From a virus: DNA of 64,000 bases. Made by a program: the position numbers and the translations under genes. Below, piece by piece: positions 6,130 through 30,539 of the stretch; the stretch's first letter is position 1; each line of letters opens with the position of its first letter. The notes under the pieces were generated by a model, which was not told the origin of the DNA, ran no database searches, and saw only the letters and a program-made list of their open reading frames with translations. The stretch spans positions 1 to 64,000 of the IMG/VR virus record IMGVR_UViG_3300027659_003120. One strand, 5' to 3'.

Positions 6130-6151
6130 ATTATAATGAAAGGGTTTTATT

Positions 6152-15545: not shown

Positions 15546-17411
15546 ATGGCATTGACAGTAATTAAACCATCAGGAATAGATACAGCCGGTAACTATACAG
15601 TTAACGACATAACTGTTTCTGCCAATGCGTCTATTGCTAATCTTACTGTCACTACTTCAAGTAACTTAGGCGCAGTAGCAAATGTACATATCTATGGAGG
15701 TTCTAACGGAAATGTACTAAGCACAGATGGCTCAGGAATATTGAGTTGGTCCGCAGGTGGTGGCGGTGCTCAAGGTGCTACTGGTGCTCAAGGAGTTCAA
15801 GGTGCTACTGGTGCTCAAGGTGCTACTGGTGCTCAAGGTGCTACTGGTGCTCAAGGAGTTCAAGGTGCTACAGGCGCTCAAGGTGCTACTGGTGCTCAAG
15901 GTGCTACTGGTGCTCAAGGTGCAACTGGTGTTCAAGGATTTCAAGGTGTTGCTGGTGCTCAAGGTGTTTTAGGCGCTCAAGGAGTTCAAGGTGCAACTGG
16001 TGTTCAAGGTGCTACAGGTGTTCAAGGATTTCAAGGTGTTGCTGGTGCTCAAGGTGTTTTAGGTGCTCAAGGCGTTCAAGGAACTGCTGGTGCTCAAGGT
16101 GTTTTAGGTGCTCAAGGAGTTCAAGGTGCTACTGGTGCTCAAGGCGTTCAAGGAACTGCTGGTGCACAAGGTGCTACAGGTGCTCAAGGAGTTCAAGGTG
16201 CAACTGGTGTTCAAGGATTTCAAGGAACTGCTGGTGCACAAGGTGCTACAGGCGCACAAGGTGATATTGGCGCTCAAGGTGCTACAGGTGTTCAAGGAGT
16301 TCAAGGTGTCTTAGGTGCTCAAGGAGTTCAAGGCGCTCAAGGGTTTCAAGGTGATGTTGGCGCTCAAGGTACTGTAGGTGCTCAAGGTGCTACAGGTGTT
16401 CAAGGATTTCAAGGTGTAGCTGGCGCTCAAGGTACTGTTGGTGCTCAAGGCGCTACAGGCGCACAAGGTGATGTTGGCGCTCAAGGCGCTACAGGCGCAC
16501 AAGGTGCTGTTGGTGCTCAAGGCGCTACAGGCGCACAAGGTGATATTGGCGCTCAAGGTGCTACTGGTGCTCAAGGAGTTCAAGGTGTTGCTGGCGCTCA
16601 AGGTACTGTAGGTGCTCAAGGCGCTACAGGCGCACAAGGTGATATTGGCGCTCAAGGTGCTGTTGGTGCTCAAGGAGTTCAAGGTGCTACAGGCGCACAA
16701 GGTACTGTAGGTGCTCAAGGTGCTACAGGTGTTCAAGGCGCTACAGGCGCACAAGGTGATATTGGCGCTCAAGGAGTTCAAGGCGCTCAAGGGTTTCAAG
16801 GTGATGTTGGCGCTCAAGGTACTGTAGGTGCTCAAGGTGCTACAGGTGTTCAAGGAGTTCAAGGTGTTGCTGGCGCTCAAGGTACTGTAGGTGCTCAAGG
16901 CGCTACAGGCGCACAAGGTGATATTGGCGCTCAAGGTGCTGTTGGTGCTCAAGGAACTGCTGGTACAGGTGCTCAAGGAGTTCAAGGTGCTACTGGTGCT
17001 CAAGGAGTTCAAGGTGCTACTGGTGCTCAAGGAGTTCAAGGTGCTACTGGTGCTCAAGGAGTTCAAGGTGCCACTGGGTCTACATCAAGAGTAGTTTCTA
17101 TTGCAGACGGTACATCAATTACCATTAATGGTGATACGACTGATATTGCTACACAAACAAATACTCAATCAGCAGGCACACTAACAATAAATGCTATTAC
17201 CGGAACACTAGTAAACGGTCAAAAAATAATATTAAGACTACAATCTACAAATGTTCAAACTTTCTCCTGGAATGCAATATTTTCAGGTTCAACCGATTTA
17301 TCTTTACCCACAGCGTCATCGGGTAGTAGTAAATATGATTTTGTTGGGTTCATATATAATACCACAGCTACAAAATGGCAATTATTAGCTAAAACTTTTG
17401 GATTTACATAA
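15546..17411 (+). CDS. Collagen-like fibre protein
   Basis: About 145 GXY triplets at 15765-17075 with one G-T interruption; compact C-terminal beta domain. Confidence 0.85.
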
Positions 17412-17645: not shown

Positions 17646-20600
17646 ATGGCAACTAAATATTGGCGGGTAGGGGGGACAAACACCTGGAGTAGTACTGCCA
17701 ATTGGTCAGACGTAAGTCCAACTGGTGCGACCGGCGCCGCTATTCCTGTTATTGGTGATGATGTTGTTATTAGTAATGTTGGGCAAACAGCTGGAACAAT
17801 AAACATTACAGCAACTGCAACCGCAAAGTTGAATTCGTGGACTGTTATAGGCGGCACCTGGACTGTTGCTGGATCTCAGCAAGTTAATATTGCAGGTACT
17901 TTTGATTGTCAAAATGTTACTTGGACTAATACCGGTACTCTTTCTCTGCAAGGAACAGGTGGGTCATATGATATCACCGCCAGTGGTACAACTTTTAATT
18001 GTGCTGTTCAATTTAATGGATTCATTGTTGCCGGCTCTAGTTTTAATTTACTATCGGCATTCACTACTGGTGCAACTCAAACCACAACATTGACTGCGGG
18101 TACTTTAATATTAAATAATTTTACATTAACAACCGGAATATTCAACACCAACGCAACCAACACCAGACAAATTCAATTTGGTACTGGTAATATAGCGTTA
18201 ATACATACTACCGCAGCAACAACGGTGTTGGTGCTAAGTAATTATACAAATTTTTCTTGTTCTGGAACTGGCGGATTTACTTCGGCTATGTCTGTTACTA
18301 GAACATTTAATGTTGGTAGCACAGGCGCAACCAATTCAATTACAGCTAATCTTGCATTAACGTCTGGTTCAAGTGTACCAAGCTTTACCGCAGGTGGGTG
18401 GTTTAATCATTTAAATTTTACGGGCAGTAGTGTTACTGTGGCAACGCTTACTGTTAACATAAATTCACTTACATTAGCAAGTGGTAGTACATATACTGCA
18501 TTAACAGTAAATGCTGTAGGCACAGGTACTATAACTTCGGCTGGAAAATCATTAACAGCATTCACTGTCAATCATACGGGTACAACTACTCTTAGTGCTG
18601 CACTTAGTACGGGCGTGACTGCTACTACCACGCTAACTCAAGGCACGCTAGATTTGGGTGGATTTACGTTAACTACTGGGGCATTCAGTTCAAGCAATAG
18701 TAATACTCGTGCAATTGCTTTTGGTACTGGCAATATTGCATTGTCACATACTACCGCAGCAACCACTGTGTTGAATATGGCCACGGCTACAGGATTTACT
18801 TGGACAGGTACAGGTGGATTTACTGTGGCTGCTATGAGTAATACAAGAACATTTAGTTTTGGCAGTACTGCCGGCGGCACAACCACTAATGCACCTAACT
18901 TAACATTTACCAGTGGTGCTAGTATTGCAACAATAACCACCGCCGGTTGGTTTAATAAACTGGATTATGGAACTACCTCTTTCACTCAAGGGACAACAGC
19001 ACTAAACTTAAATGGATTAACATTATCAAGTAGTGGAACATATACTTCATTGAGTCCAACTATGAGAGGTACTGGTACTATAACTTCAAATGGAAAAACA
19101 ATAGCAGCATTCACTGTTAATCATGCAGGAACAACTACATTAGCGTCTGCATTAAGTTGTACTACTTATACTCAAACAGCAGGCACTATAAACCGTGCAG
19201 GTTTTAACTTATCATGTTCTAGCACAGCAACATATACAGCAGGTACAATAGCCGGTAATGGTACTATAAATTGCACCACATTTACCGTTTCTGGAACACT
19301 CACGCAAACTGTTGGTGGTATTTCAGCTAGTACAAGTTTTGTAATAACATCAGGTAGTTTCACATACGATGGAGGTACATTATTTGCAGTACCTACATTT
19401 ACTCATACTGCAGGTACTGTAACATTTAATATATCGTATGCATTAACTACAACCGGTACTTATACACACACAGCCGGCACAATAAACTTAGCAGATGGAG
19501 TAACATTATCTACTGGTATATTCAGTTCAAACAATACTAATACTCGTAGTATTGCATTTGGTACTGGCAATATCAATCTTACACATACTTCCGCAGCAAC
19601 CACGGTGTTGAGCATGGCCACTGCAACTGGATTTACATACACCGGTACAGGTGGATTTACTGTAGCTGCTATGTCCGCTACAAAAACATTTGTTTTTGGT
19701 ACCACTGGTGGCACTACATCTATTGCACCAAACTTAACATTTACAACTGGCGCCAGCGTTGCAACACTAACCACCGGCAGTTGGTTTAATACATTAGATT
19801 TTGGAACAACCTCATTCATTTTAGGAACAACATCACTAAACTTAAATGGATTAACATTATCAACTAGTGGCACCAGTACCTCATATAACTTGTTAACAGT
19901 AACTATGAGAGGCACTGGTACTATGAATAAAGGTGCTGGGGTGGGCAGGGCAATAGCAGCAATGACTATTAATCATACCGGTACTACTACGCTAGTCACC
20001 GGTCTCCAGATAAATGGTGCTCTTACTCTGACAGAGGGAACTTTGGATGGCGGTCTTGGCTATGGTATACAGTGTAATACATTTGCAAGTACCGGTACCG
20101 CAACTAGATCAATTACAGGACCCGACGGCAGCGTGATTAATGTAATGGGTTCTGGTGCTACCGCTTTTTCTAATGATTCGGCTGCTGGTATAACAATTGT
20201 TGGGTATACTATCAATATGAACAGTGATTCAGCAAAAACATTTGCGGGCGGCGGAGGATCTTATGCAGCACTGACTCAAAGCTATACAGACTTTTACGCA
20301 GTGGGCCCAGGTGTATTGACAATATCAGGTAACAATTCATTTACTAATTTAAAATATAATCAAGACCTGGGGTCGATCAGGACGTGTACAATTACATTTA
20401 CTATCTCAACAACACAAACAGTTACTGACTTTACTCTTTCCGGTGCAGCAGGCAACGTAATTACAATTAACAGTAGTACCCCAGGTACACAAGCTACTTT
20501 GAGTAAGTCGAGTGGAACTGTGAGTGTGGATTATCTATCAATAAAGGATTCTAATGCCACCGGTGGAGCAACTTGGTATGCCGGAGCAAACAGTGTGGAT

Positions 20601-20681
20601 GCGGGTAATAACACCGGATGGATATTTACGGCGCCGCCGTCACCATCTACAGCTGGAGGCAAGTTCTTTTTATTTTTTTAG
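17646..20681 (+). CDS. Thr/Gly-rich beta-helix adhesin/tail-associated protein
   Basis: YWRVGGTNTWSSTANWS N-terminus; three long internal repeats (NTRxIxFGTGNIxLxHT); C-terminal YAGANSVDAGNNTGW. Confidence 0.75.
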   Translation: MATKYWRVGGTNTWSSTANWSDVSPTGATGAAIPVIGDDVVISNVGQTAGTINITATATAKLNSWTVIGGTWTVAGSQQVNIAGTFDCQNVTWTNTGTLSLQGTGGSYDITASGTTFNCAVQFNGFIVAGSSFNLLSAFTTGATQTTTLTAGTLILNNFTLTTGIFNTNATNTRQIQFGTGNIALIHTTAATTVLVLSNYTNFSCSGTGGFTSAMSVTRTFNVGSTGATNSITANLALTSGSSVPSFTAGGWFNHLNFTGSSVTVATLTVNINSLTLASGSTYTALTVNAVGTGTITSAGKSLTAFTVNHTGTTTLSAALSTGVTATTTLTQGTLDLGGFTLTTGAFSSSNSNTRAIAFGTGNIALSHTTAATTVLNMATATGFTWTGTGGFTVAAMSNTRTFSFGSTAGGTTTNAPNLTFTSGASIATITTAGWFNKLDYGTTSFTQGTTALNLNGLTLSSSGTYTSLSPTMRGTGTITSNGKTIAAFTVNHAGTTTLASALSCTTYTQTAGTINRAGFNLSCSSTATYTAGTIAGNGTINCTTFTVSGTLTQTVGGISASTSFVITSGSFTYDGGTLFAVPTFTHTAGTVTFNISYALTTTGTYTHTAGTINLADGVTLSTGIFSSNNTNTRSIAFGTGNINLTHTSAATTVLSMATATGFTYTGTGGFTVAAMSATKTFVFGTTGGTTSIAPNLTFTTGASVATLTTGSWFNTLDFGTTSFILGTTSLNLNGLTLSTSGTSTSYNLLTVTMRGTGTMNKGAGVGRAIAAMTINHTGTTTLVTGLQINGALTLTEGTLDGGLGYGIQCNTFASTGTATRSITGPDGSVINVMGSGATAFSNDSAAGITIVGYTINMNSDSAKTFAGGGGSYAALTQSYTDFYAVGPGVLTISGNNSFTNLKYNQDLGSIRTCTITFTISTTQTVTDFTLSGAAGNVITINSSTPGTQATLSKSSGTVSVDYLSIKDSNATGGATWYAGANSVDAGNNTGWIFTAPPSPSTAGGKFFLFF

Positions 20682-20703
20682 ATAGATTAAAAGGTACTTT
20701 CAA

Positions 20704-20723
20704 AAAGCATCTATGGGTGCTTT
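20704..20723 (+). terminator. Possible terminator hairpin ending the fibre operon
   Basis: aaagcatc-tatg-ggtgcttt stem; weak U-tract. Confidence 0.4.
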
Positions 20724-20750
20724 AATAGTGGTATAATTACAAGCTAAGTC

Positions 20751-20779
20751 TTGACATTTTTATATCTATGTGTTATAAT
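20751..20779 (+). promoter_or_regulatory. Consensus sigma70 promoter for the modification cluster
   Basis: TTGACA-17-TATAAT with extended -10 TG. Confidence 0.85.
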
Positions 20780-20803
20780 GTAGTATAATTTATAGGAAAT
20801 ATT

Positions 20804-21448
20804 ATGAAAAAAATCTTAATTGCAACACCATGTCTTGACCAAAAAGTTGATGCTTATTTTGTCCATAGTCTTTGTGAATCTATCAAACTTGGTATTAAAA
20901 ATGACCTTGATATTAGGTGTGTCTTTCTTGCCAATGAGAGCATTCTTCCAATGGCAAGAAATGAACTCTTTGCACTAGCATATAAAGAAAACTATGACAT
21001 AATGGTTTTCATTGATGATGATGAAAGTTGGAAAGAACACGCACTAATTGAAATCATTCAATCAAATAAAGATGTTGTAGCTTTGCCTGTCGTAAATAAA
21101 AGCGACACGGTTATCGGATTTAATGTTTGGTTAAACAAAGATTCAGAAAAAGATCCATCTGATGGTTATATAAAAATCAATAAATGCGGTACAGGATTTC
21201 TAAAACTATCAAGAAAAGTAATTGAGGACCTCTGGAACTCAAACACAGAGTTGATGTTTAGAAACAAAAAACTGAAAAATATTTGTGAGTATACATATGT
21301 GAATGGTGATTTTATTGGCGAAGATATCACACTCACTAAAAAAATCAAAGAACTTGGATATGACATTTGGTTAAATCCAAATTATACAGTTTCCCATATT
21401 GGCAATAAAATGTACAAGGGAGACTTTAAGGCTAAAAATAATTTATGA
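20804..21448 (+). CDS. GT-A fold glycosyltransferase-like protein
   Basis: ILIATP, ES.LP.ARN, FIDDD (DxD), GTGF, GED motifs. Confidence 0.75.
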   Translation: MKKILIATPCLDQKVDAYFVHSLCESIKLGIKNDLDIRCVFLANESILPMARNELFALAYKENYDIMVFIDDDESWKEHALIEIIQSNKDVVALPVVNKSDTVIGFNVWLNKDSEKDPSDGYIKINKCGTGFLKLSRKVIEDLWNSNTELMFRNKKLKNICEYTYVNGDFIGEDITLTKKIKELGYDIWLNPNYTVSHIGNKMYKGDFKAKNNL

Positions 21449-22197
21449 TTGATGTTATTATTCCGACAATGTGGATGGCTGAAATAACGCTAGATGCAAT
21501 ACAAAAATATTGCAAAAATCCAAAAGTCAGTAAAGTCATACTGATAGACAACAATGCCAAGATGCGACCTAAAGCATTTTCTAAAATTGCATCCGATTCA
21601 AAAATACAATACGTGTCATACGGAAAAAACCTATATGTAAATCCATCATGGAATGAAGGATATTACAGGTCCGAATCTGACATTATTGCAATCATCAATG
21701 ATGACATAATTGTGAGTGATGATGTATTTGATTTAGTATTGAAACACAATCCAGAGCCTGGCGATTTGATTGGTGTAAATCTGCGTGGTCGTCAAAACAA
21801 TTATAAGATTGATGATATCATTGACACCGAAGAAGAGATTGTTAAATTAAATTATAACAAGAATTCTCCTATTGGTGGGCAAGCATGGGCATTTGGAATT
21901 TGTTTGTTCATGCACAGAAAAACCTATAGAGTTATTCCTAGCATTTATCAGATTTGGTACGGCGATGATTATCTAGCGCAGAGTGCAAAAAATGTATATG
22001 CAATCAATAGCAATAAGATAAAAGGTACCATATCTGAAACTCTTAAAAAGTTTAATAATCCAAATGATGATATTTCTAAACGAATTGAGTTAGACTCTAA
22101 AAATTTTATAAGATTTAATCATTTCCAAAACGGAAAGAACTGGGATATACCAAAAAAAATGATTTCTACATATGAACGTCAAAGAAAATCTACATGA
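21445..22197 (+). CDS. Glycosyltransferase family 2
   Basis: DVIIPT, ILIDN, INDDI, WYGDD. Confidence 0.8.
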   Translation: MIDVIIPTMWMAEITLDAIQKYCKNPKVSKVILIDNNAKMRPKAFSKIASDSKIQYVSYGKNLYVNPSWNEGYYRSESDIIAIINDDIIVSDDVFDLVLKHNPEPGDLIGVNLRGRQNNYKIDDIIDTEEEIVKLNYNKNSPIGGQAWAFGICLFMHRKTYRVIPSIYQIWYGDDYLAQSAKNVYAINSNKIKGTISETLKKFNNPNDDISKRIELDSKNFIRFNHFQNGKNWDIPKKMISTYERQRKST

Positions 22198-23102
22198 AAC
22201 AAATTATGAAGTATAGTATTTTTCACATACAAGGTGGCATCGGTAAACATATTGCAGCAACAGCAGTTGCAAAAGCAATTAAGAACAATCATCCAGATAG
22301 AAAACTAATTGTTGTTTGTGCTTATTCGGACATTTTCATAAATTTATCTTTTGTTGACCGTGTTTTTAATATAGGTAATACGAGATATTTTTACCAAGAA
22401 TACATTCAAGATAAAGATTCTATAATTTTTCACCATGAGCCTTACTACACAACAAATCACATTCACAAAAGAAAAAAACTCATTGAAAATTGGTGTGATT
22501 TATATAATCTAAAGTACAACGATGAAACGCCCGAATTGAAATTCAATAAACTACAATTTGATGTTTCTAAAACTGTTTGGGGTAGAAAAAAACCAATAAT
22601 GGTTCTACACACAAATGGTGGCATGATGACAACTGATGCTAAACCATATGCTTGGACAAGAGATATGCCTACTGACATTGCTCAAGAATTAGTTGAACAC
22701 TACAAAAAAGACTATCACATTTTTCAAATCACCAAAATAAATTCTCCTAAGTTAAAGAATGTTGAGCATGTATTTGCTACACCAGAACAGTCATTATCAC
22801 TAATGGAATTGTTTAGTATTTTTCTTCACAGTAAAAAAAGAGTATTAATTGACTCCTGTATGCAACATGCCGCGGCTGCAATGAAACGGAAATCAACTGT
22901 GTTATGGAATGGAACAAGCCCAAAAGTTTTTGGATATGAATTACATGATAATATATGCACTGATATACCATATAATTTTAAGCTTCCGGGCAGTTATCTG
23001 TTTGATTTTGACTTTAATGGGAATGAGGTTGAGTATCCGTTCGCAGATGATGTAAAATTATACGATATAAATAAAATCATAGAATCTATTGATAAACAAT
23101 GA
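22194..23102 (+). CDS. GT-B fold (GT9-like) glycosyltransferase
   Basis: GGIGK N-terminal motif; IDSCMQHAAAA resembles the GT9 DSGxxHxAAA motif. Confidence 0.65.
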   Translation: MKQIMKYSIFHIQGGIGKHIAATAVAKAIKNNHPDRKLIVVCAYSDIFINLSFVDRVFNIGNTRYFYQEYIQDKDSIIFHHEPYYTTNHIHKRKKLIENWCDLYNLKYNDETPELKFNKLQFDVSKTVWGRKKPIMVLHTNGGMMTTDAKPYAWTRDMPTDIAQELVEHYKKDYHIFQITKINSPKLKNVEHVFATPEQSLSLMELFSIFLHSKKRVLIDSCMQHAAAAMKRKSTVLWNGTSPKVFGYELHDNICTDIPYNFKLPGSYLFDFDFNGNEVEYPFADDVKLYDINKIIESIDKQ

Positions 23103-23114
23103 AGGAGATGTGAA

Positions 23115-24068
23115 ATGAAAGAAATGATTAAAGAAATTATTCGTGAAGAAATGATGAGAGCTTCCATGAAAAAATATTACTTCATGTCGGGTTTACCTCG
23201 GTCTGGAAGCACTCTGCTATCTTCAATTTTAAACCAGAATCCTAGAATGTATTCCGGACCCAGTTCTCCTGTTGTAGCTATTATGCTTGCCCTGGAGAAT
23301 GCAATCTCAAGTGATGAATTATTTTTGGCTTTTCCGAAAACTGACCAAGCAGGAAAAATAATTAGTAGTGTTATTGAAAATTATTATTCTGATGTTGATA
23401 AACCGGTTATCATTGATAAAAATCGTTCATGGGTAAATCGTATGCATTATATTCCAGGTTATTTTGGAGTTGAAGCAAAAATTCTTTGCCCAGTAAGAAA
23501 CATGGATGAAATTCTGACTTCATTTATTACTATGCATCGTAGAAATCCATTTGAGATAAATGGTAAAATTAATTTCATTGATGAGATGTTGATTAAAAAT
23601 AATATACCACTGAATGATGAAAATAGATGCCAACTTCTATCGGGACCTAATGGAATTATTGGTCAAAGTTATGGCGGTATTCAACAAGCTATGATGGACG
23701 GCAAACAAAAACAACTTCATTTTATTGAGTATGATGATTTAATGAATGAACCTAAAGAAACGATGCGTAAAATTTATGAATTTTTAGATGAAGAATATTT
23801 TGAACATGATTTTTCAAAGATAGAAAATATACATAAAGAAAATGATGCGGCCGTATATGGTCTTTCAGATATGCATGATGTTCGGAATAATTTAGAAAAG
23901 ATTTCTAAGGACCCAAAAGAAGTATTGCCCGAGTCTATACTTGAAAAATGTCAAGGAACTGAATTTTGGAGAAATGTAAACGAAGATTACACTGAAGAAG
24001 TAGAAGATTTTACACCAAATGAAACCCCTCCCTCAAATGAAGATAACACAAAACTTATAGGACAATAA
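23115..24068 (+). CDS. Sulfotransferase
   Basis: 5'-PSB loop GLPRSGSTLL; VRN...S 3'-PB region; IEYDDL..P. Confidence 0.85.
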   Translation: MKEMIKEIIREEMMRASMKKYYFMSGLPRSGSTLLSSILNQNPRMYSGPSSPVVAIMLALENAISSDELFLAFPKTDQAGKIISSVIENYYSDVDKPVIIDKNRSWVNRMHYIPGYFGVEAKILCPVRNMDEILTSFITMHRRNPFEINGKINFIDEMLIKNNIPLNDENRCQLLSGPNGIIGQSYGGIQQAMMDGKQKQLHFIEYDDLMNEPKETMRKIYEFLDEEYFEHDFSKIENIHKENDAAVYGLSDMHDVRNNLEKISKDPKEVLPESILEKCQGTEFWRNVNEDYTEEVEDFTPNETPPSNEDNTKLIGQ

Positions 24069-24069
24069 A

Positions 24070-24357
24070 ATGGAAAAAACACCAAAAACACTTGTACAAA
24101 TTCAAGGCACCATTAAATCAGCTAGAGACAGCGTTTGGGTCATCACAGATGAAATTGAAAAACTAACTGCTGGTGCATTACCAAATGAAAACCATAAAGG
24201 CAACATCGGCCGAAATGTTGAACATCTAAAATTGGTTGTTGCAGATACTGAGATTGTTAATTCAGGTGAAGACATTGCCGACCTTATTGCAGCAATTGCC
24301 ACAGGCGAAGCAAAACTTGCTGAGAATATCTGGCCAGCAGCCGACAATACTGAATAA
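24070..24357 (+). CDS. Hypothetical protein
   Basis: Packed ORF with phage-like codon usage. Confidence 0.6.
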   Translation: MEKTPKTLVQIQGTIKSARDSVWVITDEIEKLTAGALPNENHKGNIGRNVEHLKLVVADTEIVNSGEDIADLIAAIATGEAKLAENIWPAADNTE

Positions 24358-24374
24358 AAAATTTAATTTATATT

Positions 24375-25232
24375 ATGAAAAAAATTCTAATTATGGGATT
24401 ACCTGGTTCAGGTAAAACTTACCTCGCAGAAAAACTCAAAACATATCTTGAGTATAATGGTGATATTTTTAAAGTAAATCCATATAAGATGATGAATCTG
24501 GAAAGTGGACTTGGCCAAACACCATCAAAAGTTTCTGTTGATTGGTTTAATGCAGATGAAGTGCGTAAGAGATTTAACGACTGGGATTTTAGTAAAGAAG
24601 GCCGTATTCGTCAAAGCATACGAATGTTTGAATTTGCTATGAAATGTTCCAGTGATTTTGTCATATGTGATTTTGTTGCACCGCTGCCAGAAATGCGTCA
24701 CAATTTTAAAGCAGATTGGACAATTTGGATGGACACAATTGATGCTGGTAGATATGAGGACACGAATAAGGCTTTCGTTTCACCAGACTTATATGATTTT
24801 AGAATTACTGAACAGAATGCAGAAAAATGGGTTAAGTTTATTGGAAATCACATTCTTGAAAATATACGCAGACCAAGATTTGATTGGCAAAAAGAAACTG
24901 TGCAGATGCTGGGGCGTTGGCAACCTTGGCATCCTGGTCATAGAGCATTGTTTGATAGGGCAATTGAAAAGACTGGGCAAGTAGTTATACAGATTAGGGA
25001 TTGTCAGGGATGGCAAGGTTCTAATCCATTTGCAATTGAGCAAGTCAAAAATTATATTCAAAGAGACTTGGATCCGGTATATCAAGGGCAGTACGAAATT
25101 CAGATTGTGCCAAATATTGTCAACATTACATATGGGCGTGACGTTGGTTATAAGATAGAACAAGAGGTATTTACTGAAGAGATTCATTCAATCTCAGCGA
25201 CTAAGATTCGTAATGAAATGGGAATCGGATGA
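24375..25232 (+). CDS. APS kinase (CysC-like) fused to a HxGH nucleotidyltransferase domain
   Basis: GLPGSGKT P-loop, NADEVR, DFSKEGR; C-terminal GRWQPWHPGH, YGRDVG, ISATKIR. Confidence 0.75.
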   Translation: MKKILIMGLPGSGKTYLAEKLKTYLEYNGDIFKVNPYKMMNLESGLGQTPSKVSVDWFNADEVRKRFNDWDFSKEGRIRQSIRMFEFAMKCSSDFVICDFVAPLPEMRHNFKADWTIWMDTIDAGRYEDTNKAFVSPDLYDFRITEQNAEKWVKFIGNHILENIRRPRFDWQKETVQMLGRWQPWHPGHRALFDRAIEKTGQVVIQIRDCQGWQGSNPFAIEQVKNYIQRDLDPVYQGQYEIQIVPNIVNITYGRDVGYKIEQEVFTEEIHSISATKIRNEMGIG

Positions 25233-25936
25233 TTTATAATGAACCTTATCCACACCATATAATAGATAATTTTATTGATGATGAGATTGCTCATAAATTG
25301 TCAAATGACTTTATGAGTTATGATTCCCCAAATTGGTTTATTTACAACAATCAAATTGAAGTCAAAAAATCATGTAACAACTGGTACAATTTTCCAGAAG
25401 AAACGTATAAGTTTTTTCAGTATTTGAATTCTTCAACATTTGTTCAGAGTTTGTCGGATTTAACTGGTGTACAACTTATACCGGACCATGGATTACATGG
25501 CGCTGGTTGGCATATTCAACCCGCCCAAGGTAAACTGAATGTACATTTGGACTATTCAATTCATCCTAAGCTAGGTTTAGAGCGTAGATTCAATTTAATT
25601 TTTTACCTAACACCAAACTGGAATACATCTTGGGGAGGAAATCTTGAATTGTGGTCACATAACTCAGAGAATAATTCTCCAAAAGAATTGATAAAAATTG
25701 TGGAAAACAAATTCAATCGTGCATTAATTTTTGATACCACTTATAATTCATGGCATGGTTTTTCACAACCAATAACTTGCCCAGAAGGTGTATATAGAAA
25801 GAGTATTGCAATGTACTATCTATGTGAACCATCAAAAACTGCATCCAAACGACATAGAGCATTATTTTCAACAACTGAAGAACAGAAGAATAATGGGAGC
25901 GTTCTAAAATTGATTCAAGATAGGATTAAATTATGA
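25229..25936 (+). CDS. 2OG-Fe(II) oxygenase (prolyl-hydroxylase-like)
   Basis: HLD (HxD), distal WHG, RKS; GGNLELW. Confidence 0.85.
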   Translation: MIYNEPYPHHIIDNFIDDEIAHKLSNDFMSYDSPNWFIYNNQIEVKKSCNNWYNFPEETYKFFQYLNSSTFVQSLSDLTGVQLIPDHGLHGAGWHIQPAQGKLNVHLDYSIHPKLGLERRFNLIFYLTPNWNTSWGGNLELWSHNSENNSPKELIKIVENKFNRALIFDTTYNSWHGFSQPITCPEGVYRKSIAMYYLCEPSKTASKRHRALFSTTEEQKNNGSVLKLIQDRIKL

Positions 25937-28278
25937 CAGAAACATGTACAGATAAAATTGTTGAGATACTAAAATCTAAAAAAATTGATAGTTTTGAAGT
26001 TCGTGGCGGCACAGATAAAATCTCTGGGCACAGCTACTCTGAGATATATGGAAAACATTTAAACAAATACTTAGACAAAAAAGGATCTCTCCTGGAAATA
26101 GGAGTATTTTGGGGCGGTTCTGCGGTTTTATGGAACGACTTACTTCCTAATTTTAATTTGTGTTTGTTGGATATAGTAAATGTAATCACTCCAGATAATT
26201 GGGAACAACTTGATAAGAATAGGATGGAATATCTAATTGCAGATGCTTACAATGATGTAACAAGAAACCAGATAAAAGAAAAATATCCAGATGGATTTGA
26301 TGTTATTACTGAAGATGGTCCTCACACTTTAGATAGTCAGTTAAGTTGTATTAAACTTTATTTGCCTCTAATCAAAGAAGATGGAGTAATGATTATTGAG
26401 GACATTGCAAATATAGAAAATTTAAATACATTAATGAAATCAGTTGATAGTAATTATGATTGTATTTCATATGATTATAGGCATATAAAAAATCGTTCGG
26501 ATGATATTGTTTTAGTTATTAAAAAAAGAATGAAAAAATGTAAAATAGTAATGACTGCTATGTTTAAGAATGAGGCATCAGTGACGAAAAAGATGCTTGA
26601 ATCTTGCTACAAATATATTGATTTTTGGGTTGTTCAAGATAATGGATCCACAGACGGAACAGATAAAATAGTTAAAGATTTTTTTACAGAGAAAAATATA
26701 CCCGGCCACTATTATCAAGTAGAAGAAGGTTGGGTTGGTTTTGGATGGAATAGAGACCACTTAATACAAGTGTGCCAGAGTATTGACCATGGGTGCGACT
26801 GGATTTTAAAAATGGATTGTGATGAAACTTTAGAAGTTGATGCTGATTTTGATTGGTCTTTACTTGATGATAAGTCTCAACATTCATTTCATATACCAGC
26901 TGTACAGCCTGGATTATTATATTACAGGGCATGGATGTGGAATGCACAAATGCCTTGGAGATTTAATCACGACCCGTGCCACGAAACTAGTTACTGTGAT
27001 ATAGAGGGTATTGGCGAAAACTACAATAGATTCAACTTGCCTCTTTCTTTTAGACAGGTTGGAACCAGAGGAGGTCAAAGTTGGACTGTGCCAACAAAGT
27101 TTATTAGTGATGCATTAATACTTGAAGAAAAAATGATTCGTGAAAATACAATGTTAACAGATTCATATCATTTTTGGTATATTGGAAAAAGTTATAGTGA
27201 TGCATATTCTAGCAATGCTTTTCCTTTAGGCGAATCTCAACAGAAAGAATATGCGAGAAGAACAATTTATTATTTTCAAGAATTTTTAAATTTCACTCAC
27301 GATTTTGCAAATACAAAAAAATCAAAACATATTGACGAAACCGCTTACATGTCTCTGTTGTTAATGGGAGATGCAAATTGGTATTTAGGACAAAAAGAAT
27401 CTAGTGTTGAATGTTATAAATTAGCTGCTCAATTTGCACCAGAAAGAAATGAACATTTATATCTTTTAGCTGAGAAGAATAAATATCTTGGAAATTTTAA
27501 AGAAATGTTAATTTGTACCTCTATAATGATGCAACCCGAAAGAACAAATCCATTTCCAAAATATATTAACTTCATTGATCCAACTTTATATCACGATGGC
27601 GGTGATAGGATTAAAAATTTACACGCCGAGGCTTTTTCATATGTTCAATCTATTTGTGTTGCCGAACAAGAACCAGTTGAATTTTTACCAGTACAAAAAA
27701 ATATTATGACAAATTTTAATATAAACAAAAATTATCAAAACAGAATGTTTATTGTGGATAATTTTTATGAGAATCCAGATTCTATTAGGCAACATGCACT
27801 CACAATGGAATTCAAAGAAGACATAAGATATTATAAAGGTTTAAGAACGACTACACACTTTCACCCAAATGGAATTAAAGAATCATTTGAATCTATAATG
27901 GGTAAAAAAATTAACAATTTTGATGGAGGCATCAATGGTTGTTTTCAAATAACTACAGCAAATGATGTTCAGGTGTATCATTATGATTTACAAACTTGGG
28001 CTGCTATGATATACTTGACGCCAAATGCTCCTATTGAAAGTGGAACTAGATTACATCGCTCAAAGATTAATGGCACAAGACATTCAAGTGAGCCCAATAT
28101 AGATGATGCGTTTACTGGTGGCTTCTTGGATTCTACAAAATTTGAGGTTACCGATTCGGCTGCTAATATATACAATAGACTAGTCATTATGGATGCAAAA
28201 TGTATTCATTCAGCAGGTGCATATTTTGGCGACAACAAATATAATGGTAGACTAACTCATTTATTCTTTTTTGATTAA
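25933..28278 (+). CDS. Multidomain protein: SAM methyltransferase + GT2 + TPR-like + 2OG-Fe(II) oxygenase
   Basis: LEIGVFWGGS/EDGPH; QDNGSTDGT/MDCDE; helical ERNEH region; VDNFYENPD...HYD...HSA...GRL. Confidence 0.8.
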   Translation: MTETCTDKIVEILKSKKIDSFEVRGGTDKISGHSYSEIYGKHLNKYLDKKGSLLEIGVFWGGSAVLWNDLLPNFNLCLLDIVNVITPDNWEQLDKNRMEYLIADAYNDVTRNQIKEKYPDGFDVITEDGPHTLDSQLSCIKLYLPLIKEDGVMIIEDIANIENLNTLMKSVDSNYDCISYDYRHIKNRSDDIVLVIKKRMKKCKIVMTAMFKNEASVTKKMLESCYKYIDFWVVQDNGSTDGTDKIVKDFFTEKNIPGHYYQVEEGWVGFGWNRDHLIQVCQSIDHGCDWILKMDCDETLEVDADFDWSLLDDKSQHSFHIPAVQPGLLYYRAWMWNAQMPWRFNHDPCHETSYCDIEGIGENYNRFNLPLSFRQVGTRGGQSWTVPTKFISDALILEEKMIRENTMLTDSYHFWYIGKSYSDAYSSNAFPLGESQQKEYARRTIYYFQEFLNFTHDFANTKKSKHIDETAYMSLLLMGDANWYLGQKESSVECYKLAAQFAPERNEHLYLLAEKNKYLGNFKEMLICTSIMMQPERTNPFPKYINFIDPTLYHDGGDRIKNLHAEAFSYVQSICVAEQEPVEFLPVQKNIMTNFNINKNYQNRMFIVDNFYENPDSIRQHALTMEFKEDIRYYKGLRTTTHFHPNGIKESFESIMGKKINNFDGGINGCFQITTANDVQVYHYDLQTWAAMIYLTPNAPIESGTRLHRSKINGTRHSSEPNIDDAFTGGFLDSTKFEVTDSAANIYNRLVIMDAKCIHSAGAYFGDNKYNGRLTHLFFFD

Positions 28279-28280
28279 TT

Positions 28281-29552
28281 ATGAAAAATTTGAAATTTAG
28301 TATTATTACTCCATCACATGATCCAGGAAACATTCCTTACTTGTTAGAAGCATTTGAAAGTTTGTGTGAACAAACTCATGCCAATTGGGAATGGATATTA
28401 GCTATAAACAATAAATTTTTACCACAACTTGTTCCAAAGATAATCAAAGAACATCCAAAAGTAAAAATATATCATACTTATATTGAATCATCAAATATTG
28501 GTGCAATTAAGCATGAATCATTTTTCTTGGGTGAGGGTGATGTTTTAGTAGAACTAGACCATGATGATATGCTTACTTCTAATTGTTTGAAGAAATTAAA
28601 CGAAGCATATCAAGATGATGATGTTGGATTTGTTTATAGTGATAATGCAACATTACATATGGAGAACAATTTTATTCCATTTAATAATTCATACGGCTGG
28701 ACACATAGGCCGTTTGAGTGGAAAGACAAAGAACTCATTGCAATGAATTCTTTCAAACCAACAAGCCATGCAATGTCTTATATTTGGTTTGCTCCAGACC
28801 ATGTTAGGTCATGGAGAAAAGAACATTATGTCAATATTGGTGGACATAATCCTGATATGTTTGTTTGTGAAGACCATGAATTGTGTATTAGAACTTACCT
28901 AACTACAAAAATGGTTTTTATACCTGAACCACTTTATGTTTACAGAATAACAGGAAACAATACTTCTATAAACAAAAGAAATCCAGAAATTCAACAAAAG
29001 ACTAAAGAACTACATGCTCAGTATGCACAAAAATTGGCAGAGAAAGATGCTAAGGATAGAAAATTATTATGTGTGGATATTGGTGGAGGTTTGAATCCTT
29101 ATCCAAATTATTTATCTATTGATTTAAGAAAAGATGCGGATGTCATACATGACTTAAATGATGGTATACCTCTCAGAGATAACACGGTAGGTGTACTAAA
29201 CGCAAGTCATATACTAGAACACTTGCACGATAAGACGAAAATAATGGCAGAAATACATCGTGTATTAGCACCGGGAGGATGGGCGTTCATTCAAGTTCCA
29301 AGTACCGATGGAAGAGGTGCATTTCAAGACCCAACACATGTTAGTTACTGGAACGAAAATTGCTTTTTATATTATACCGATGCATATTTGGCTAATTTTA
29401 TAGATAACAAAGATATCCGTTTTCAAGAATATCGTAGAGAGACATACTTTCCTAATGAATGGATGAAAAATCTAGGCGTATGTGTCACGGACGCTTGGTT
29501 AGTTGCAATTAAAGATGATATGCCAAGATTACCTGGTCCATTAAAGATATAA
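28281..29552 (+). CDS. GT2 glycosyltransferase fused to a class I methyltransferase
   Basis: FSIITP, ELDHDD, EDHEL; VDIGGG, SHILEHL, RVLAPGG, DPTH. Confidence 0.85.
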   Translation: MKNLKFSIITPSHDPGNIPYLLEAFESLCEQTHANWEWILAINNKFLPQLVPKIIKEHPKVKIYHTYIESSNIGAIKHESFFLGEGDVLVELDHDDMLTSNCLKKLNEAYQDDDVGFVYSDNATLHMENNFIPFNNSYGWTHRPFEWKDKELIAMNSFKPTSHAMSYIWFAPDHVRSWRKEHYVNIGGHNPDMFVCEDHELCIRTYLTTKMVFIPEPLYVYRITGNNTSINKRNPEIQQKTKELHAQYAQKLAEKDAKDRKLLCVDIGGGLNPYPNYLSIDLRKDADVIHDLNDGIPLRDNTVGVLNASHILEHLHDKTKIMAEIHRVLAPGGWAFIQVPSTDGRGAFQDPTHVSYWNENCFLYYTDAYLANFIDNKDIRFQEYRRETYFPNEWMKNLGVCVTDAWLVAIKDDMPRLPGPLKI

Positions 29553-29555
29553 ATA
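29548..29555 (+). promoter_or_regulatory. T4-type late promoter
   Basis: TATAAATA upstream of gp13. Confidence 0.75.
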
Positions 29556-29579
29556 GATAATAACTATTGGAAACTATAA

Positions 29580-30539
29580 ATGGCTAAACCCACAACTAGA
29601 GCAACATTCAAAGACTACTGCTTACGCAGATTAGGTCATCCAGTGATTCAAATCAATGTAGACGATGACCAGGTTGAAGACCGCATAGATGATGCACTAC
29701 AATTCTTTGAGGACTATCATTTTGATGGTTGCGAAGAAATTTATATGAAACATAAAATCACACAAACTGACATTAACCGCAGGTATATTCCTTGCCCAGA
29801 TGCAGTTATTTTTGTGACCGGTATCATACCATTTGACCAGTCTTCTTCATCAATCAATATGTTTGATTTGCGTTACCAATTGCGGTTGCATGATTTATAT
29901 GACTTCACATCCGTGTCATATGTTTCATATGAGATTACCATGCAACACATTCGTACTTTGAATTTATTGTTCTCCGGAACACCGATGTTCAGATTTAATC
30001 GTAAACAAAATAAAATTTTCTTAGACATTGATTGGTCTAGAGATTTACTAGTTGGAGATTATGTAGTGGTTCAGTGTTATCGTGCTATGCGACCAGACAC
30101 TGTTACTTTAACTGGCACATTAGCAGGCAACACAGTTTCTAATATCATTGTTGGAACATCAACAATATTTGACCAAGAAGTAATTGAGAATGATTTTATT
30201 ACTCTGTCAAGCGGAGAAGAAGTTCAAATTAGTAAAATAAATTCTCCAACAAATATACAAATTATTGGAACCGGGTTATCTTCAAATGTAACATCCAACA
30301 CCGCAACTAAAACCGGCATTTCTGATGTATGGGATGATAGATTTCTTAAAAGATATGGTACAGCATTAATTAAAAAACAGTGGGGAGAAAATTTGAAAAA
30401 ATTTGGAGGAATTCAGATGCCTGGTGGCGTAACTCTAAATGGAAAAGAAATTTGGGACGAAGCAGACACTGAAATTAAATCTATAGAAGAAGAAATGTAT
30501 AATTTTAATAGTTTACCTAGTGAAATATTTACAGGTTAA
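29580..30539 (+). CDS. gp13: Neck protein gp13
   Basis: LRRLGHPVIQINVDDDQVEDRIDDALQ; QWGENLKKF..QMPGGVTLNG. Confidence 0.92.
   Translation: MAKPTTRATFKDYCLRRLGHPVIQINVDDDQVEDRIDDALQFFEDYHFDGCEEIYMKHKITQTDINRRYIPCPDAVIFVTGIIPFDQSSSSINMFDLRYQLRLHDLYDFTSVSYVSYEITMQHIRTLNLLFSGTPMFRFNRKQNKIFLDIDWSRDLLVGDYVVVQCYRAMRPDTVTLTGTLAGNTVSNIIVGTSTIFDQEVIENDFITLSSGEEVQISKINSPTNIQIIGTGLSSNVTSNTATKTGISDVWDDRFLKRYGTALIKKQWGENLKKFGGIQMPGGVTLNGKEIWDEADTEIKSIEEEMYNFNSLPSEIFTG

Follow-up and report, generated by a model that had tools for sequence, protein, structure and literature searches.

What do nine closely packed genes, set among the virion genes of a freshwater T4-like phage, modify, and do they act as one pathway? 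In the window (the whole 64,000-nucleotide stretch analysed here), nine plus-strand open reading frames, o1 to o9, occupy positions 20804-29552 with their ends overlapping or nearly abutting; all features below lie on the same strand. Genes for collagen-like and Thr-rich fibres lie upstream, and gp13, gp14 and gp15 lie downstream. A preliminary description had read the locus as a single self-contained operon with five glycosyltransferase (GT) domains, a sulfotransferase, a sulfate-activation fusion, two 2OG-Fe(II) oxygenase domains, two methyltransferase (MT) domains and a TPR-like region, acting on virion fibres or on the host surface. The position, the gene count and this domain inventory were confirmed. 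The cluster is, however, not one operon but is assembled from two modules, A (o1-o6) and B (o7-o9), each of which is mobile on its own.

Module A: glycosyltransferases, a sulfotransferase and a sulfate-activation protein

Module A encodes an A197-like GT-A, a GT2, a GT9-like GT-B, a sulfotransferase, a 95-residue protein and a fusion of an APS kinase with an HxGH nucleotidyltransferase. The product of o1 (20804-21448; 214 residues) is a small viral GT-A glycosyltransferase (phrog_1574, 1e-19), whose Pfam GT2 score of 17.5 bits was below the cut-off; the family profile matched the viral GT-A A197 of STIV (E = 0.0012), and D71 in the DDDE motif was invariant. The GT2 glycosyltransferase o2 (21445-22197; 250 residues; PF00535, 25.9 bits) is a short form, unlike the 450-residue o2 of L006 (98% identical) and similar relatives, which has an extra Methyltransf_24-like domain at its C-terminus. 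No Pfam match was obtained for o3 itself (22194-23102; 302 residues), and its assignment as a GT9-like (heptosyltransferase-like) GT-B comes from its profile and its Atlas cluster, in which 45% of members carried PF01075 (GT9; score 0.98). A distant homologue in L058 matched PF01075 at 22.1 bits, and in the PDB the o3 family profile found WaaC/WaaF heptosyltransferases only (E = 0.008), over a D-S/T-x-x-x-H-x-A-A motif.

The PAPS-type sulfotransferase o4 (23115-24068; 317 residues) was detected by both PF13469 (2.4e-15) and PF00685 (8.6e-12). Its best matches, TPST and NoeE, were weak, and its 5'-PSB loop (G26, R29, G31) and 3'-PB pair (R128, S136) were invariant in 16 relatives with identities down to 22%. 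The conserved acidic protein o5 (24070-24357; 95 residues) gave no family match and no lead in the Atlas search; its gene invariably separated the sulfotransferase gene from that of the kinase fusion, in an order (o4-o5-o6) that was fixed in about 20 loci.

The candidate PAPS synthase o6 (24375-25232) joins an APS-kinase domain (residues 1-165) to a minimal HxGH nucleotidyltransferase (172-285), as judged by profile and fold. When the family profile was searched against the PDB, 17 of the top 18 matches were APS kinases or APS-kinase domains (E = 1e-15 to 4e-12), including those of bifunctional PAPS synthetases and SAT/APS kinases; the one exception was adenylate kinase 9. In VIA-align, the AF2 model (pLDDT 92) matched APS kinases with Z scores of 17.8 and 17.7. 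The APS-kinase half of the sulfate-activation fusion named earlier is therefore a solid assignment. The C-terminal domain was nearest to PPAT (Z = 10.7) and NMNAT (Z = 10.2) and not to ATP sulfurylase. In P0236, the fusion partner of this small domain is a canonical APS kinase, and we propose that the small domain is ATP-sulfurylase-like in function. The cluster is self-contained for sulfate activation only and has no nucleotide-sugar genes.

An alternative is that o6 is no more than an auxiliary gene for sulfur assimilation (a viral 'cysC') and raises cysteine synthesis in the host, and that its sulfotransferase neighbour is incidental and uses host PAPS. Freshwater virome studies widely list viral cysC among auxiliary metabolic genes, and o6 is far commoner than module A, with >600 contigs (~7,776 protein matches) as against 27 contigs for the sulfotransferase query. 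Furthermore, Sano-like siphophages carry o6 homologues near a gene annotated 'cysteine dioxygenase' and have no sulfotransferase, and o6 is absent from those cultured cyanophages that bear sulfotransferases. Nevertheless, a sulfotransferase scored above the Pfam cut-off in 24 of 37 o6-bearing records, usually within ~10 kb, yet o4 matches occurred in only 10 of 50,697 phage records. Together with the fixed gene order, this makes the auxiliary role improbable.

Module B: oxygenases, glycosyltransferases and methyltransferases

Module B consists of a P4H/OGFOD1-like oxygenase, a fusion of a methyltransferase with a SunS-like GT-A/TPR region and an oxygenase, and a GT2 fused to a methyltransferase. 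The 2OG-Fe(II) oxygenase o7 (25229-25936; 235 residues; PF13640, 2.1e-14) matched OGFOD1 at 2.9e-6. In o8 (25933-28278; AF2 model pLDDT 88.7) four parts follow one another: a sugar-O-methyltransferase-like domain (residues 1-198), a GT-A of the GT2 type (205-380), TPR-like helical repeats (387-579) and a DSBH oxygenase (600-781). The first part resembled SpnK (VIA-align Z = 19.4), and the C-terminal oxygenase is a DUF6445 domain similar to OGFOD1 (Z = 14.4). Over residues 165-515, o8 matched the peptide glycosyltransferases SunS and ThuS, at 1e-15 in Foldseek and with a VIA Z of 20.4 for 292 aligned residues, and LH3 and AspH were also matched. The last gene, o9 (28281-29552; 423 residues), encodes a GT2 (PF00535, 2.5e-10) fused to a class-I methyltransferase (PF08241, 1.8e-8).

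The preliminary description had raised the possibility that catalytic residues were degenerate, but those of the cluster's enzymes were intact and invariant among relatives. The HxD...H...R residues were kept in both oxygenase domains (H106, D108, H176 and R190 of o7 in 19 sequences; H683, D685, H759 and R773 of o8), as were the DCDE motif of o8 (295-298), D93-H-D95-D96 of o9 and D266, G268 and G270 in the D-x-G-x-G motif of o9, which had a mean column identity of 77%.

The architecture of o8 is that of protein and peptide modifiers, namely SunS/ThuS, the collagen hydroxylase-glycosyltransferase LH3, the TPR-bearing AspH, and OGFOD1. An analogy for virion modification is mycobacteriophage Omega, in which GT and MT genes adjoin the major head gene and the MT shares 32% identity with the o8 MT domain. 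Could the modules, instead of decorating a structural protein, make a sulfated, methylated oligosaccharide or a modified peptide that is soluble or secreted, such as a Nod-factor-like signal or a secondary metabolite? The substrate of SunS is a small secreted peptide, the MT part of o8 is similar to SpnK and MycE, which O-methylate macrolide sugars, and the best curated match of o4, weak at 26.6 bits, was the Nod-factor sulfotransferase NoeE. NodU-like carbamoyltransferases were present near the sulfotransferases in L045 and L078, and metabolite synthesis has been proposed for the dioxygenase arrays of cyanophages (Iyer et al. 2010; PMC2938197). We consider such a product improbable, since the nine genes include no chitin-oligomer synthase, NRPS, precursor peptide or exporter, and the association with fibre type described below would not be accounted for.

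It is also conceivable that the target of the GTs, oxygenases and methyltransferases is the phage DNA, which they would hypermodify along the lines of the pathways that glycosylate hydroxymethyl-pyrimidines. Phages are known in which a methyltransferase, a 2OG dioxygenase and GT-A or GT-B enzymes act together on DNA (bioRxiv 10.1101/2023.12.21.572611), and early expression would suit DNA modification. This idea appears very improbable. The oxygenases were of the P4H/OGFOD1 and DUF6445 types and not TET/JBP, the methyltransferases were sugar-O-MT-like and class I and not C5-cytosine enzymes, and no TET/JBP or thymidylate-synthase-like gene was found in the 92-kb record (~51% complete). Both the TPR domain and the association with fibre type indicate protein instead.

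Each module accompanies one type of fibre repeat

We surveyed about 180 loci from IMG/VR. Both modules, wherever present, were always located between fibre genes and gp13, and most relatives carried only one of them. The near-identical relative L007 was without o7-o9; it has lost module B, which indicates that this module is dispensable in nature.

The co-occurrence with collagen fibres suggested as a check in the preliminary description was observed for module B. In 20/20 distinct o8 loci with 4 kb or more of sequence upstream, 130-591 collagen triplets were present within 8 kb, compared to 1/14 loci without o8 (Fisher p = 1.5e-8). Across whole records, four consecutive G-X-Q triplets were found in 36/46 records with o8 and 6/43 without (p = 7e-10); the 10 o8 records lacking such runs were all fragments, and six records had the runs without o8. 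In each of the o8 loci, Gln made up 42-86% of the Y residues, whereas collagens were of the G-P-I, G-X-S or G-X-T type where o8 was absent. Module A tracked a different repeat, as NTTG-repeat fibres were encoded directly upstream in 9/12 module A loci, and upstream in 1/66 loci without the module (p = 1e-8). Module A appeared in 5 separate places on the o6 tree, and in 3-4 of 4 independent pairs the repeat fibre changed together with it, with no change in the opposite direction. Independent contrasts were too few in the phylogenetically controlled tests (1-2 for module B and 4 for module A), with a sign test p of 0.125 at best. As the modules adjoin the fibre genes, much of the association could arise from co-inheritance by linkage, or from a shared ancestry of the phages sampled.

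Both repeat types occur in fibre f1 of the window. Its Gly-X-Gln collagen-like region (1601-2419; residues 521-793), a candidate substrate of module B, has 91 triplets with Gln at Y in 63 and a single Pro. It is followed by 14 copies of a repeat with a strict 17-residue period and the consensus N-x-F-F-G-x-x-A-G-x-x-N-T-T-G-x-x (2489-3205; residues 817-1055), a candidate substrate of module A. A second Gly-X-Gln region lies in f4 (7935-8870; residues 324-635; 104 triplets, Gln at Y in 63; PF01391, 7.9e-48). The region in f7 (15756-17084; residues 71-513; PF01391, 2e-66) is of a Gly-X-Gln/Thr type, with Gln at Y in 84 and Thr in 31 of 147 triplets; Pro and Lys make up 0.3% and 0.8% of the whole protein. 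Since the collagens associated with module B are without Lys, and those of this phage almost without Pro, a role of o7 and o8 as prolyl or lysyl hydroxylases of the classical collagen type is excluded. Directly upstream of the cluster promoter, f8 (17646-20681; 1011 residues) is fibre-like in its composition (23% Thr) and internal repeats. It gave no family match, had homologues only in L006 (65%) and L021 (36%), and is a possible further substrate.

Fibres or host surface as the target

That each module travels with one type of fibre repeat suggests that the phage probably decorates its own fibres rather than the host surface. We estimate a probability of roughly 55% that the nine enzymes are two cytoplasmic sets that modify these fibres post-translationally. 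Module B would be the companion of the Gly-X-Gln collagen-like fibres. Its two oxygenase domains may hydroxylate a fibre residue other than Lys and, in this phage, other than Pro; sugars would be added by two glycosyltransferases, the GT-A of o8, guided by the TPR region, and the GT2 of o9, and the methyltransferase domains of o8 and o9 could then O-methylate these sugars. In module A, the glycosyltransferases o1, o2 and o3 are predicted to build a short glycan on the 17-residue NTTG-repeat fibres, for subsequent sulfation by o4. PAPS would be supplied by o6, with APS formed from ATP and sulfate by the small HxGH domain and phosphorylated by the APS-kinase domain.

In aquatic T4-like phages, glycosyltransferase islands at this position have been described before; the 'host recognition cluster' between VrlC and gp14, like the islands of cyano- and pelagimyophages, was interpreted as modifying the host O-chain (PMC7029224). 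The enzymes could remodel a host surface glycan (LPS O-chain, capsule or S-layer) early in infection and block superinfection by competing phages. The early-type promoter kept in seven relatives fits such a role. In cultured cyanophages, related oxygenase/GT clusters with nucleotide-sugar genes lie apart from the virion genes, and some relatives add epimerase/dehydrogenase-like and carbamoyltransferase genes, which are typical of polysaccharide loci. However, the nine proteins are soluble, with no membrane segments (maximum Kyte-Doolittle score over 19 residues, 1.43), and the nine genes include no Gtr-type flippase, polymerase, priming transferase, bactoprenol transferase or exporter. The GT-A/TPR/oxygenase architecture of o8 fits modifiers of proteins and peptides, and the tracking of G-X-Q collagen by module B and of NTTG repeats by module A would be left without explanation. 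We therefore regard the host surface as an unlikely target. Of the two targets put forward in the preliminary description, fibres have gained comparative support, and the host surface was without specific support.

Promoters of the cluster

A sigma70-type (early-type) promoter with an extended -10 element, TTGACA-17-TG-n-TATAAT, is located at 20751-20779. It matches at 12/12 positions and is the sole perfect sigma70 site within the structural block. TTGACA-17-TATA[AC/G]T was found upstream of o1 in L006, L009, L011, L012, L013, L014 and L015 despite their differing flanks. Transcription from this promoter could provide the enzymes early, ahead of the late fibre proteins. We note that a promoter of this type is no less suited to host takeover than to virion modification.

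The earlier statement that the cluster is under a sigma70 rather than a late promoter holds for the sigma70 site, but the late-promoter-like motif TATAAATA is also present inside the cluster, in the 3' end of o3 (23066-23073), 49 nt before o4. This internal motif may sustain expression of the sulfation genes late in infection. Its ATAAATA core was conserved in 16/20 related loci, where [TC]ATAAATA was found 43-52 nt before the sulfotransferase start, while nearby third codon positions varied. TATAAATA recurs at 29548-29555, 32 nt before gp13, and other structural genes of the window have TATAAATA at the same spacing.

Gene content of the cluster

The sequence belongs to a 91.8-kb IMG/VR virus record, about 51% complete, from a T4-like myophage; its major capsid protein and those of cultured cyanomyophages share about 62% identity at most. 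Near-identical sequence was found again in metagenomes of freshwater and lakes, sampled in about 20 studies. psbA was absent from this partial (~51%) record, which therefore provided no clue to the host from that gene. Fibre genes occupy positions 41-20681 and encode three collagen-like proteins (f1, f4 and f7, the last at 15546-17411), an 1840-aa protein with seven LamG domains and a 1011-aa protein containing 23% Thr, while gp13, gp14 and gp15 are found at 29580, 30639 and 31460, respectively. Between the fibres and gp13 lie the nine packed genes reported in the preliminary description (o1-o9; 20804-29552, + strand), and their ends overlap or abut. The cluster thus occupies the position of the T4-like 'host recognition cluster', in the structural region from the fibre/baseplate genes to the neck genes gp13/gp14.

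Each of the domain classes named in that description was recovered using Pfam, family profiles and AF2 models. The first gene, o1, encodes a viral GT-A glycosyltransferase (GT) of about 200 aa, which scored below the Pfam GT2 cut-off and whose family profile matches STIV A197 (E 0.0012). It is followed by a GT2 enzyme identified by Pfam (o2) and a GT9-like GT-B protein (o3), which has no Pfam match and was assigned from three weak, concordant lines; a single-sequence PDB search with o3 yielded nothing usable. The o4 protein passed the Pfam sulfotransferase cut-offs, and both of its PAPS-binding motifs, the 5'-phosphosulfate loop (G26, R29, G31) and the 3'-phosphate pair (R128, S136), are invariant in 16 sequences with identities down to 22%. 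A conserved 95-aa protein without a family is encoded by o5, and an Atlas search with it gave no lead. An APS kinase joined to a small HxGH domain (o6, 24375-25232) precedes a P4H/OGFOD1-type oxygenase with an invariant HxD...H...R motif (o7), a four-part fusion (o8; AF2 model pLDDT 88.7) and a GT2 domain fused to a class-I methyltransferase (MT), with invariant DxD and SAM motifs (o9). Degenerate catalytic residues had been named beforehand as a possible refutation of a modifying role; in o8, the DCDE motif and residues H683, D685, H759 and R773 are invariant in 34 homologues, so this objection does not apply.

The o2 gene (21445-22197) encodes only 250 aa. A Methyltransf_24-like C-terminal domain of about 200 aa is gone from it and kept in the 98% identical copy of the related locus L006 (L006:5077-6429). 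Most relatives encode o2 homologues of 420-450 aa, and both lengths were seen among relatives; o2 of the window has lost the MT-like C-terminal domain that L006 retains.

Two separately recurring modules

The cluster had been described as one self-contained operon. This did not hold when all window proteins were compared by tblastn with 108, and then 80, fetched IMG/VR loci, since the cluster consists of two units that recur separately. The series o1-o2-o3-o4-o5, with or without o6, was seen in about 25 loci, and o7-o8-o9 in about 70, each immediately before gp13; we refer to o1-o6 as module A and to o7-o9 as module B. In otherwise syntenic relatives, the position before gp13 was occupied by either module alone, by both or by none. 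At least 215 IMG/VR loci carry o8, and at least 600 carry o6. The two were present together only in the window, in a near-identical relative (the contig of L006/L114) and in the contig of L024/L116, and partly in L164 and L175. In L007, o6 leads straight to gp13 and only the last ~25 nt of o9 are left (L007:2480-2660, compared with window positions 25150-25260 and 29480-29610), and gp13-gp15 are 98-100% identical to those of the window (99% for gp13). This arrangement marks the recent, clean loss of all 4.3 kb of module B.

In a megablast search of 50,697 phage records, the region as a whole had no match, and neither full module was found in a cultured phage in these records, which contained single domains only. 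Related oxygenase and GT clusters are present in cultured cyanophages, elsewhere in the genome.

Sulfate activation by o6

With a family profile built from 50 diverse o6 homologues, the top PDB matches were APS kinases (E down to 1e-15). The AF2 model of o6 (pLDDT 92) aligned to APS kinases with VIA Z scores of 17.8 and 17.7, compared to 14.5 for gluconate kinase, and the best Foldseek matches were likewise APS kinases. Both profile and fold, therefore, establish the N-terminal half of o6, a P-loop kinase, as an APS kinase. A minimal HxGH nucleotidyltransferase makes up the C-terminal 110 residues, in which H186 and H189 are invariant and G254-R255 is GRD-like; it is nearest to, and significantly matched only by, NMNAT (E 2.5e-11) and PPAT (Z 10.7). 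ATP-sulfurylase motifs align to this domain only below significance, and it is not recognisably an ATP sulfurylase.

Two independent facts tie the small domain to sulfate. In one relative (P0236) it is joined to a complete, canonical APS kinase (5.7e-63), and a sulfotransferase above the Pfam cut-off was present in 24 of the 37 viral records with o6; matches to o4 occurred in only 10 of the 50,697 phage records. The small domain thus has the functional tie to APS kinase and sulfotransferase that would link it to ATP sulfurylase, and an APS-forming role for the second half of o6 is reasonable and somewhat favoured. Sano- and Salvo-like siphophages, which encode an o6 homologue (32-38% identical) and no sulfotransferase, count against a universal link between the two. 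The NMNAT-like domain, along with a NADAR neighbour in Sano-like phages, prompted us to consider a role of o6 in NAD salvage (NR kinase plus NMNAT). This reading was dropped, as the kinase is specifically APS-kinase-like and tracks sulfotransferases. Supply of ADP-heptose to the GT9-like o3 was also discarded, since o6 occurs far more often with a sulfotransferase than with o3.

A number of further observations were made at loci carrying o6. In L109 (Stenotrophomonas phage Bhz60) and L110 (Xylella phage Bacata), the o6 homologue adjoins a NADAR-domain gene, a MazG gene and a 'cysteine dioxygenase' gene (~5995-6735). With about 7,776 homologues scored, o6 was 74-88% identical across more than 600 viral contigs in which gp13 was only 33-55% identical, and in the window and loci L033-L108 its conservation was far above that of the adjoining neck proteins. 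A NodU/CmcH-type carbamoyltransferase (PF16861, 2.6e-60) lies beside the sulfotransferase, upstream of o6, in L045 (L045:2886-4580) and, with the same layout, in L078, which suggests further glycan decorations in other cassettes. At many o6-bearing loci, L061:4664-6433, L086:4999-6765 and L099:4810-6480 among them, the sulfotransferase forms the N-terminal third of a 557-606-aa protein, of which the remaining ~350 residues had no Pfam match.

Enzymes of module B

The AF2 model of o8 comprises an SpnK/MycE-like sugar-O-methyltransferase, a GT-A domain, helical repeats spanning about 190 residues and a double-stranded beta-helix oxygenase. Its nearest structures were SunS and ThuS (Foldseek 1e-15; VIA Z 20.4, rmsd 4.2 over 292 residues, model residues 165-515), and as a fold match of a predicted model, o8 shows the SunS-like order, with the GT-A domain ahead of a TPR-like domain for substrate binding. 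Lower matches were to LH3, a collagen hydroxylase-glycosyltransferase (Foldseek, ~640 columns), AspH (TPR and oxygenase) and OGFOD1. All of these structural matches (SunS, ThuS, LH3, AspH and OGFOD1) act on proteins or peptides.

As in a collagen hydroxylase system, 2OG-Fe(II) oxygenases with an intact HxD...H...R motif are encoded together with GT and collagen genes. The substrate of a collagen Lys/Pro hydroxylase was not found: in each of the 20 module-B loci, Lys took up only 0-0.6% of the X and Y positions, and Pro made up 0.3% in the window and 2-29%, mostly at X, in the other loci. Since these phage collagens are without Lys, and here almost without Pro, the hydroxylated residue must differ from that of LH3-type systems. 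Lys is excluded as the target and, in this phage, so is Pro; speculative candidates are Thr, Gln and Asn.

A different architecture was seen in L013 (record G041), where only the C-terminal DUF6445-type oxygenase domain of o8 is present (9804-10454; 7e-72), in a 641-aa protein behind module A. L014, a sister contig of the L013 lineage, has a large G-V-Q collagen gene, so the same oxygenase-collagen pairing is found in another arrangement.

Pairing of the modules with fibre repeats

Co-occurrence of the cluster with collagen fibres across T4-like genomes had been proposed as a check, and it provided our main result, the association of each module with one type of fibre repeat. Module B tracks collagen of the G-X-Q (Gly-X-Gln) type. 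All 20 distinct o8 loci for which 4 kb or more of upstream sequence was available had 130-591 collagen triplets within 8 kb, as against 1 of 14 loci without o8 (p 1.5e-8); this and the other association figures are inflated by linkage and shared descent, since the modules adjoin fibre genes. Gln occupied 42-86% of Y positions in each o8 locus, and Lys was absent (0-0.6%). Collagens of loci without o8 were of the G-P-I, G-X-S and G-X-T types, with the G-X-Q type only in L078. At the level of whole records, searched with a DNA pattern, four consecutive G-X-Q triplets were present in 36/46 records with o8 and 6/43 others (p 7e-10), and a reversed control pattern gave no matches.

Module A is associated with a different repeat. 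The gene before it usually encodes a Gly-rich fibre of 1000-1500 aa whose building unit is a 17-residue repeat, N-x-F-F-G-x-x-A-G-x-x-N-T-T-G-x-x (NTTG repeat), and f1 of the window has 14 copies (aa 817-1055; 2489-3205) behind its collagen region. Repeats of this type were found upstream in 9 of 12 module-A loci, compared to 1 of 66 others (p 1e-8). Module A appears at five separate places in the o6 tree, and the repeat fibre changes in the same way in three to four of four independent pairs and never in the opposite direction; four contrasts, even all in the right direction, cannot reach significance. The gp13 tree, with 19 usable rows and one or two contrasts, was uninformative, and these controlled tests are underpowered. 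Most records are fragments.

The f1 protein (41-3640) consists of an N-terminal part, the G-X-Q collagen region, the NTTG repeats and a C-terminus with an S-D-x-R-x-K-like motif in the last ~120 aa, which we take to resemble the self-cleaving chaperone domains of tail fibres and spikes.

Decoration of fibres or of the host surface

The matches of o8 to modifiers of proteins and peptides, the lack of membrane segments and the two module-fibre associations make decoration of the virion fibres in the cytoplasm the most economical model, to which we assign a probability of about 0.55. Module B would hydroxylate, glycosylate and O-methylate the G-X-Q collagen fibres, and module A would build a sulfated glycan on the NTTG-repeat fibres using PAPS supplied by o6. 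The preliminary description had left the choice between virion fibres and the host surface, along a single pathway; the pairing of modules with fibre repeats favours the former, and the single pathway gives way to two modules.

A comparable island, the hypervariable 'host recognition cluster' of pelagimyophages and cyanomyophages, carries many GTs and fibres, the latter with collagen repeats and YadA-like domains among them, between VrlC and gp14 (Zaragoza-Solas et al., 2020; PMC7029224). Its GTs were interpreted as modifiers of the host O-chain, and sulfotransferases go unmentioned (PMC7029224). The present cluster is likewise an island in the structural region, from baseplate/fibre to neck genes, combining GTs with fibres that include collagen repeats. 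It differs from the published cluster in having two defined modules, each with one fibre repeat type, and one of them with a sulfate-activation gene. Remodelling of the host surface appears unlikely here, because the membrane parts of a Gtr/Oac-type system (flippase, bactoprenol glucosyltransferase and serotype-specific transferase) were not found. None of the nine proteins has a hydrophobic segment (maximum 19-residue Kyte-Doolittle score 1.43), and nothing resembling a flippase, polymerase or priming transferase was detected among them. The remaining readings rank lower still. For genes of DNA hypermodification (a ThyS-like hydroxymethylase or a TET/JBP 5mYOX enzyme), there were no PF00303 or PF12851 matches in the 92-kb record, which is ~51% complete, and the TET model matched no control genome either.

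Fibre decoration could extend to a broader, more tentative picture, in which interchangeable cassettes of aquatic T4-like phages match the chemistry of the fibre repeats. Lys-free G-X-Q triple helices would then bear an undescribed modification, and NTTG fibres a sulfated glycan fed by a 285-aa minimal PAPS synthase with a new, NMNAT-like type of ATP sulfurylase; the abundant viral 'cysC' genes and 'LPS' GTs of freshwater viromes would serve virion decoration and not host metabolism. If this is true, these genes, counted as auxiliary metabolic genes in viromes, need reinterpretation, and the minimal PAPS synthase, the modifier of Lys-free G-X-Q collagen and a soluble GT9-like protein glycosyltransferase become testable enzymologies. 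GT islands in the fibre region are common in marine and freshwater T4-like phages and have so far been assumed to change the host surface. If the cassettes decorate fibre repeats, studies of host range and receptor binding must reckon with glycosylated, sulfated fibres, and the module-fibre associations name the candidate substrate-enzyme pairs.

Relation to known systems

This kind of system is already known; what appears to be novel is the presence of two cassettes, their pairing with fibre repeats, the sulfation arm with a candidate minimal PAPS synthase and a cassette for Lys-free G-X-Q collagen. LH3 (PLOD3) and mimivirus L230, like o8, hold a GT-A domain and a 2OG-Fe(II) oxygenase in one polypeptide, and L230 is encoded alongside collagen-like proteins of the virus. 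Unlike either, o8 adds a TPR region and a sugar-O-methyltransferase, and its oxygenase is OGFOD1/DUF6445-like and not of the PLOD type. SunS and ThuS, the glycocin S-glycosyltransferases, share with o8 a GT-A domain and, after it, a helical TPR-like domain to hold the peptide substrate, but SunS, which does not come from a phage, acts on a small bacteriocin precursor and has neither an oxygenase nor an MT domain.

In mycobacteriophages, glycosylation of the virion is established; Freeman and colleagues are said to have described it in 2023 for phages of the Che8, Corndog and Omega type. These also have GT and MT genes among virion genes, with gp16 (GT) and gp17 (MT) of Omega located after the major head gene; Omega gp17 is 32% identical to the MT domain of o8. 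A further viral likeness is that of o1 to the GT-A protein A197 of STIV. The mycobacteriophage targets, however, are capsid and tail-tube subunits, and sulfation, hydroxylation and PAPS synthesis are not known to be involved there; the likeness to the present cluster lies in the gene arrangement.

Bifunctional PAPS synthases (animal PAPSS1/2, and bacterial and fungal ATP-sulfurylase/APS-kinase fusions) resemble o6 in joining an APS kinase to an HxxH-type nucleotidyltransferase. The N-to-C order is that of PAPSS1, and both halves align to 1x6v (Z 16.7). In contrast to the ~550-630 aa of these enzymes, o6 has 285 aa, and its second domain, of ~110 aa, has no significant ATP-sulfurylase match. 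Bacterial operons combining 2OG hydroxylases, MT fusions, sulfotransferases and PAPS synthetases were predicted earlier, with co-encoded tail-collar/collagen-like proteins as proposed substrates, to be hydroxylated first and sulfated next (Iyer, Abhiman, de Souza & Aravind, 2010; PMC2938197). Those loci are bacterial, their oxygenases come from other families (beta-hydroxylase, PhyH) and their PAPS synthetases are canonical. In the present lytic-type T4-like phage, hydroxylation belongs to one mobile module and sulfation to another, which is centred on a glycan.

Transcription

The perfect sigma70 promoter noted previously is real. It lies at 20751; of the six perfect sites in the window, no other falls within the structural block. 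Seven relatives retain TTGACA-17-TATA[AC/G]T ahead of o1 despite differing flanks. A hairpin at ~20703-20725 was considered as a terminator and rejected, being too weak and without a T-run. Motifs of the form NATAAATA lie 26-53 nt before several structural genes, including gp13. The view that the cluster uses a sigma70 in place of a late promoter is correct as to the sigma70 site, but a late-type motif is also present inside the cluster, 49 nt before o4. This motif, [TC]ATAAATA at 23066-23073, falls in the coding end of o3 (codons D-I-N-K); 16 of 20 loci retain its ATAAATA core (ATA and AAT codons), although the third positions of adjoining codons vary. The motif could serve the sulfation genes as a late promoter embedded in o3, and conservation of the core before o4 would mean that late transcription may also reach module B and the second half of module A.

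Four lake metatranscriptome libraries contained contigs over parts of o2, o4, o5, o6 and gp13-15 at 95-100% identity, which is compatible with expression, or possibly with DNA carry-over; the absence of cover by these RNA-library contigs over f8, the Thr-rich fibre-like gene, and o7-o8 carries no weight. Transcript starts are hinted at, only weakly, by contig ends near 23111/23128 and 29579/29580. RNA-library contigs also pile up over the collagen repeat of f7 (15600-16200; summed depth 30-166, with many joints and loose ends), probably through cross-mapping of collagen repeats from many related phages. The five further perfect TTGACA-17-TATAAT sites, at 47459, 55787, 57028 and 58603 on the + strand and 46883 on the - strand, all lie outside the structural block and are presumably the early promoters of this phage.
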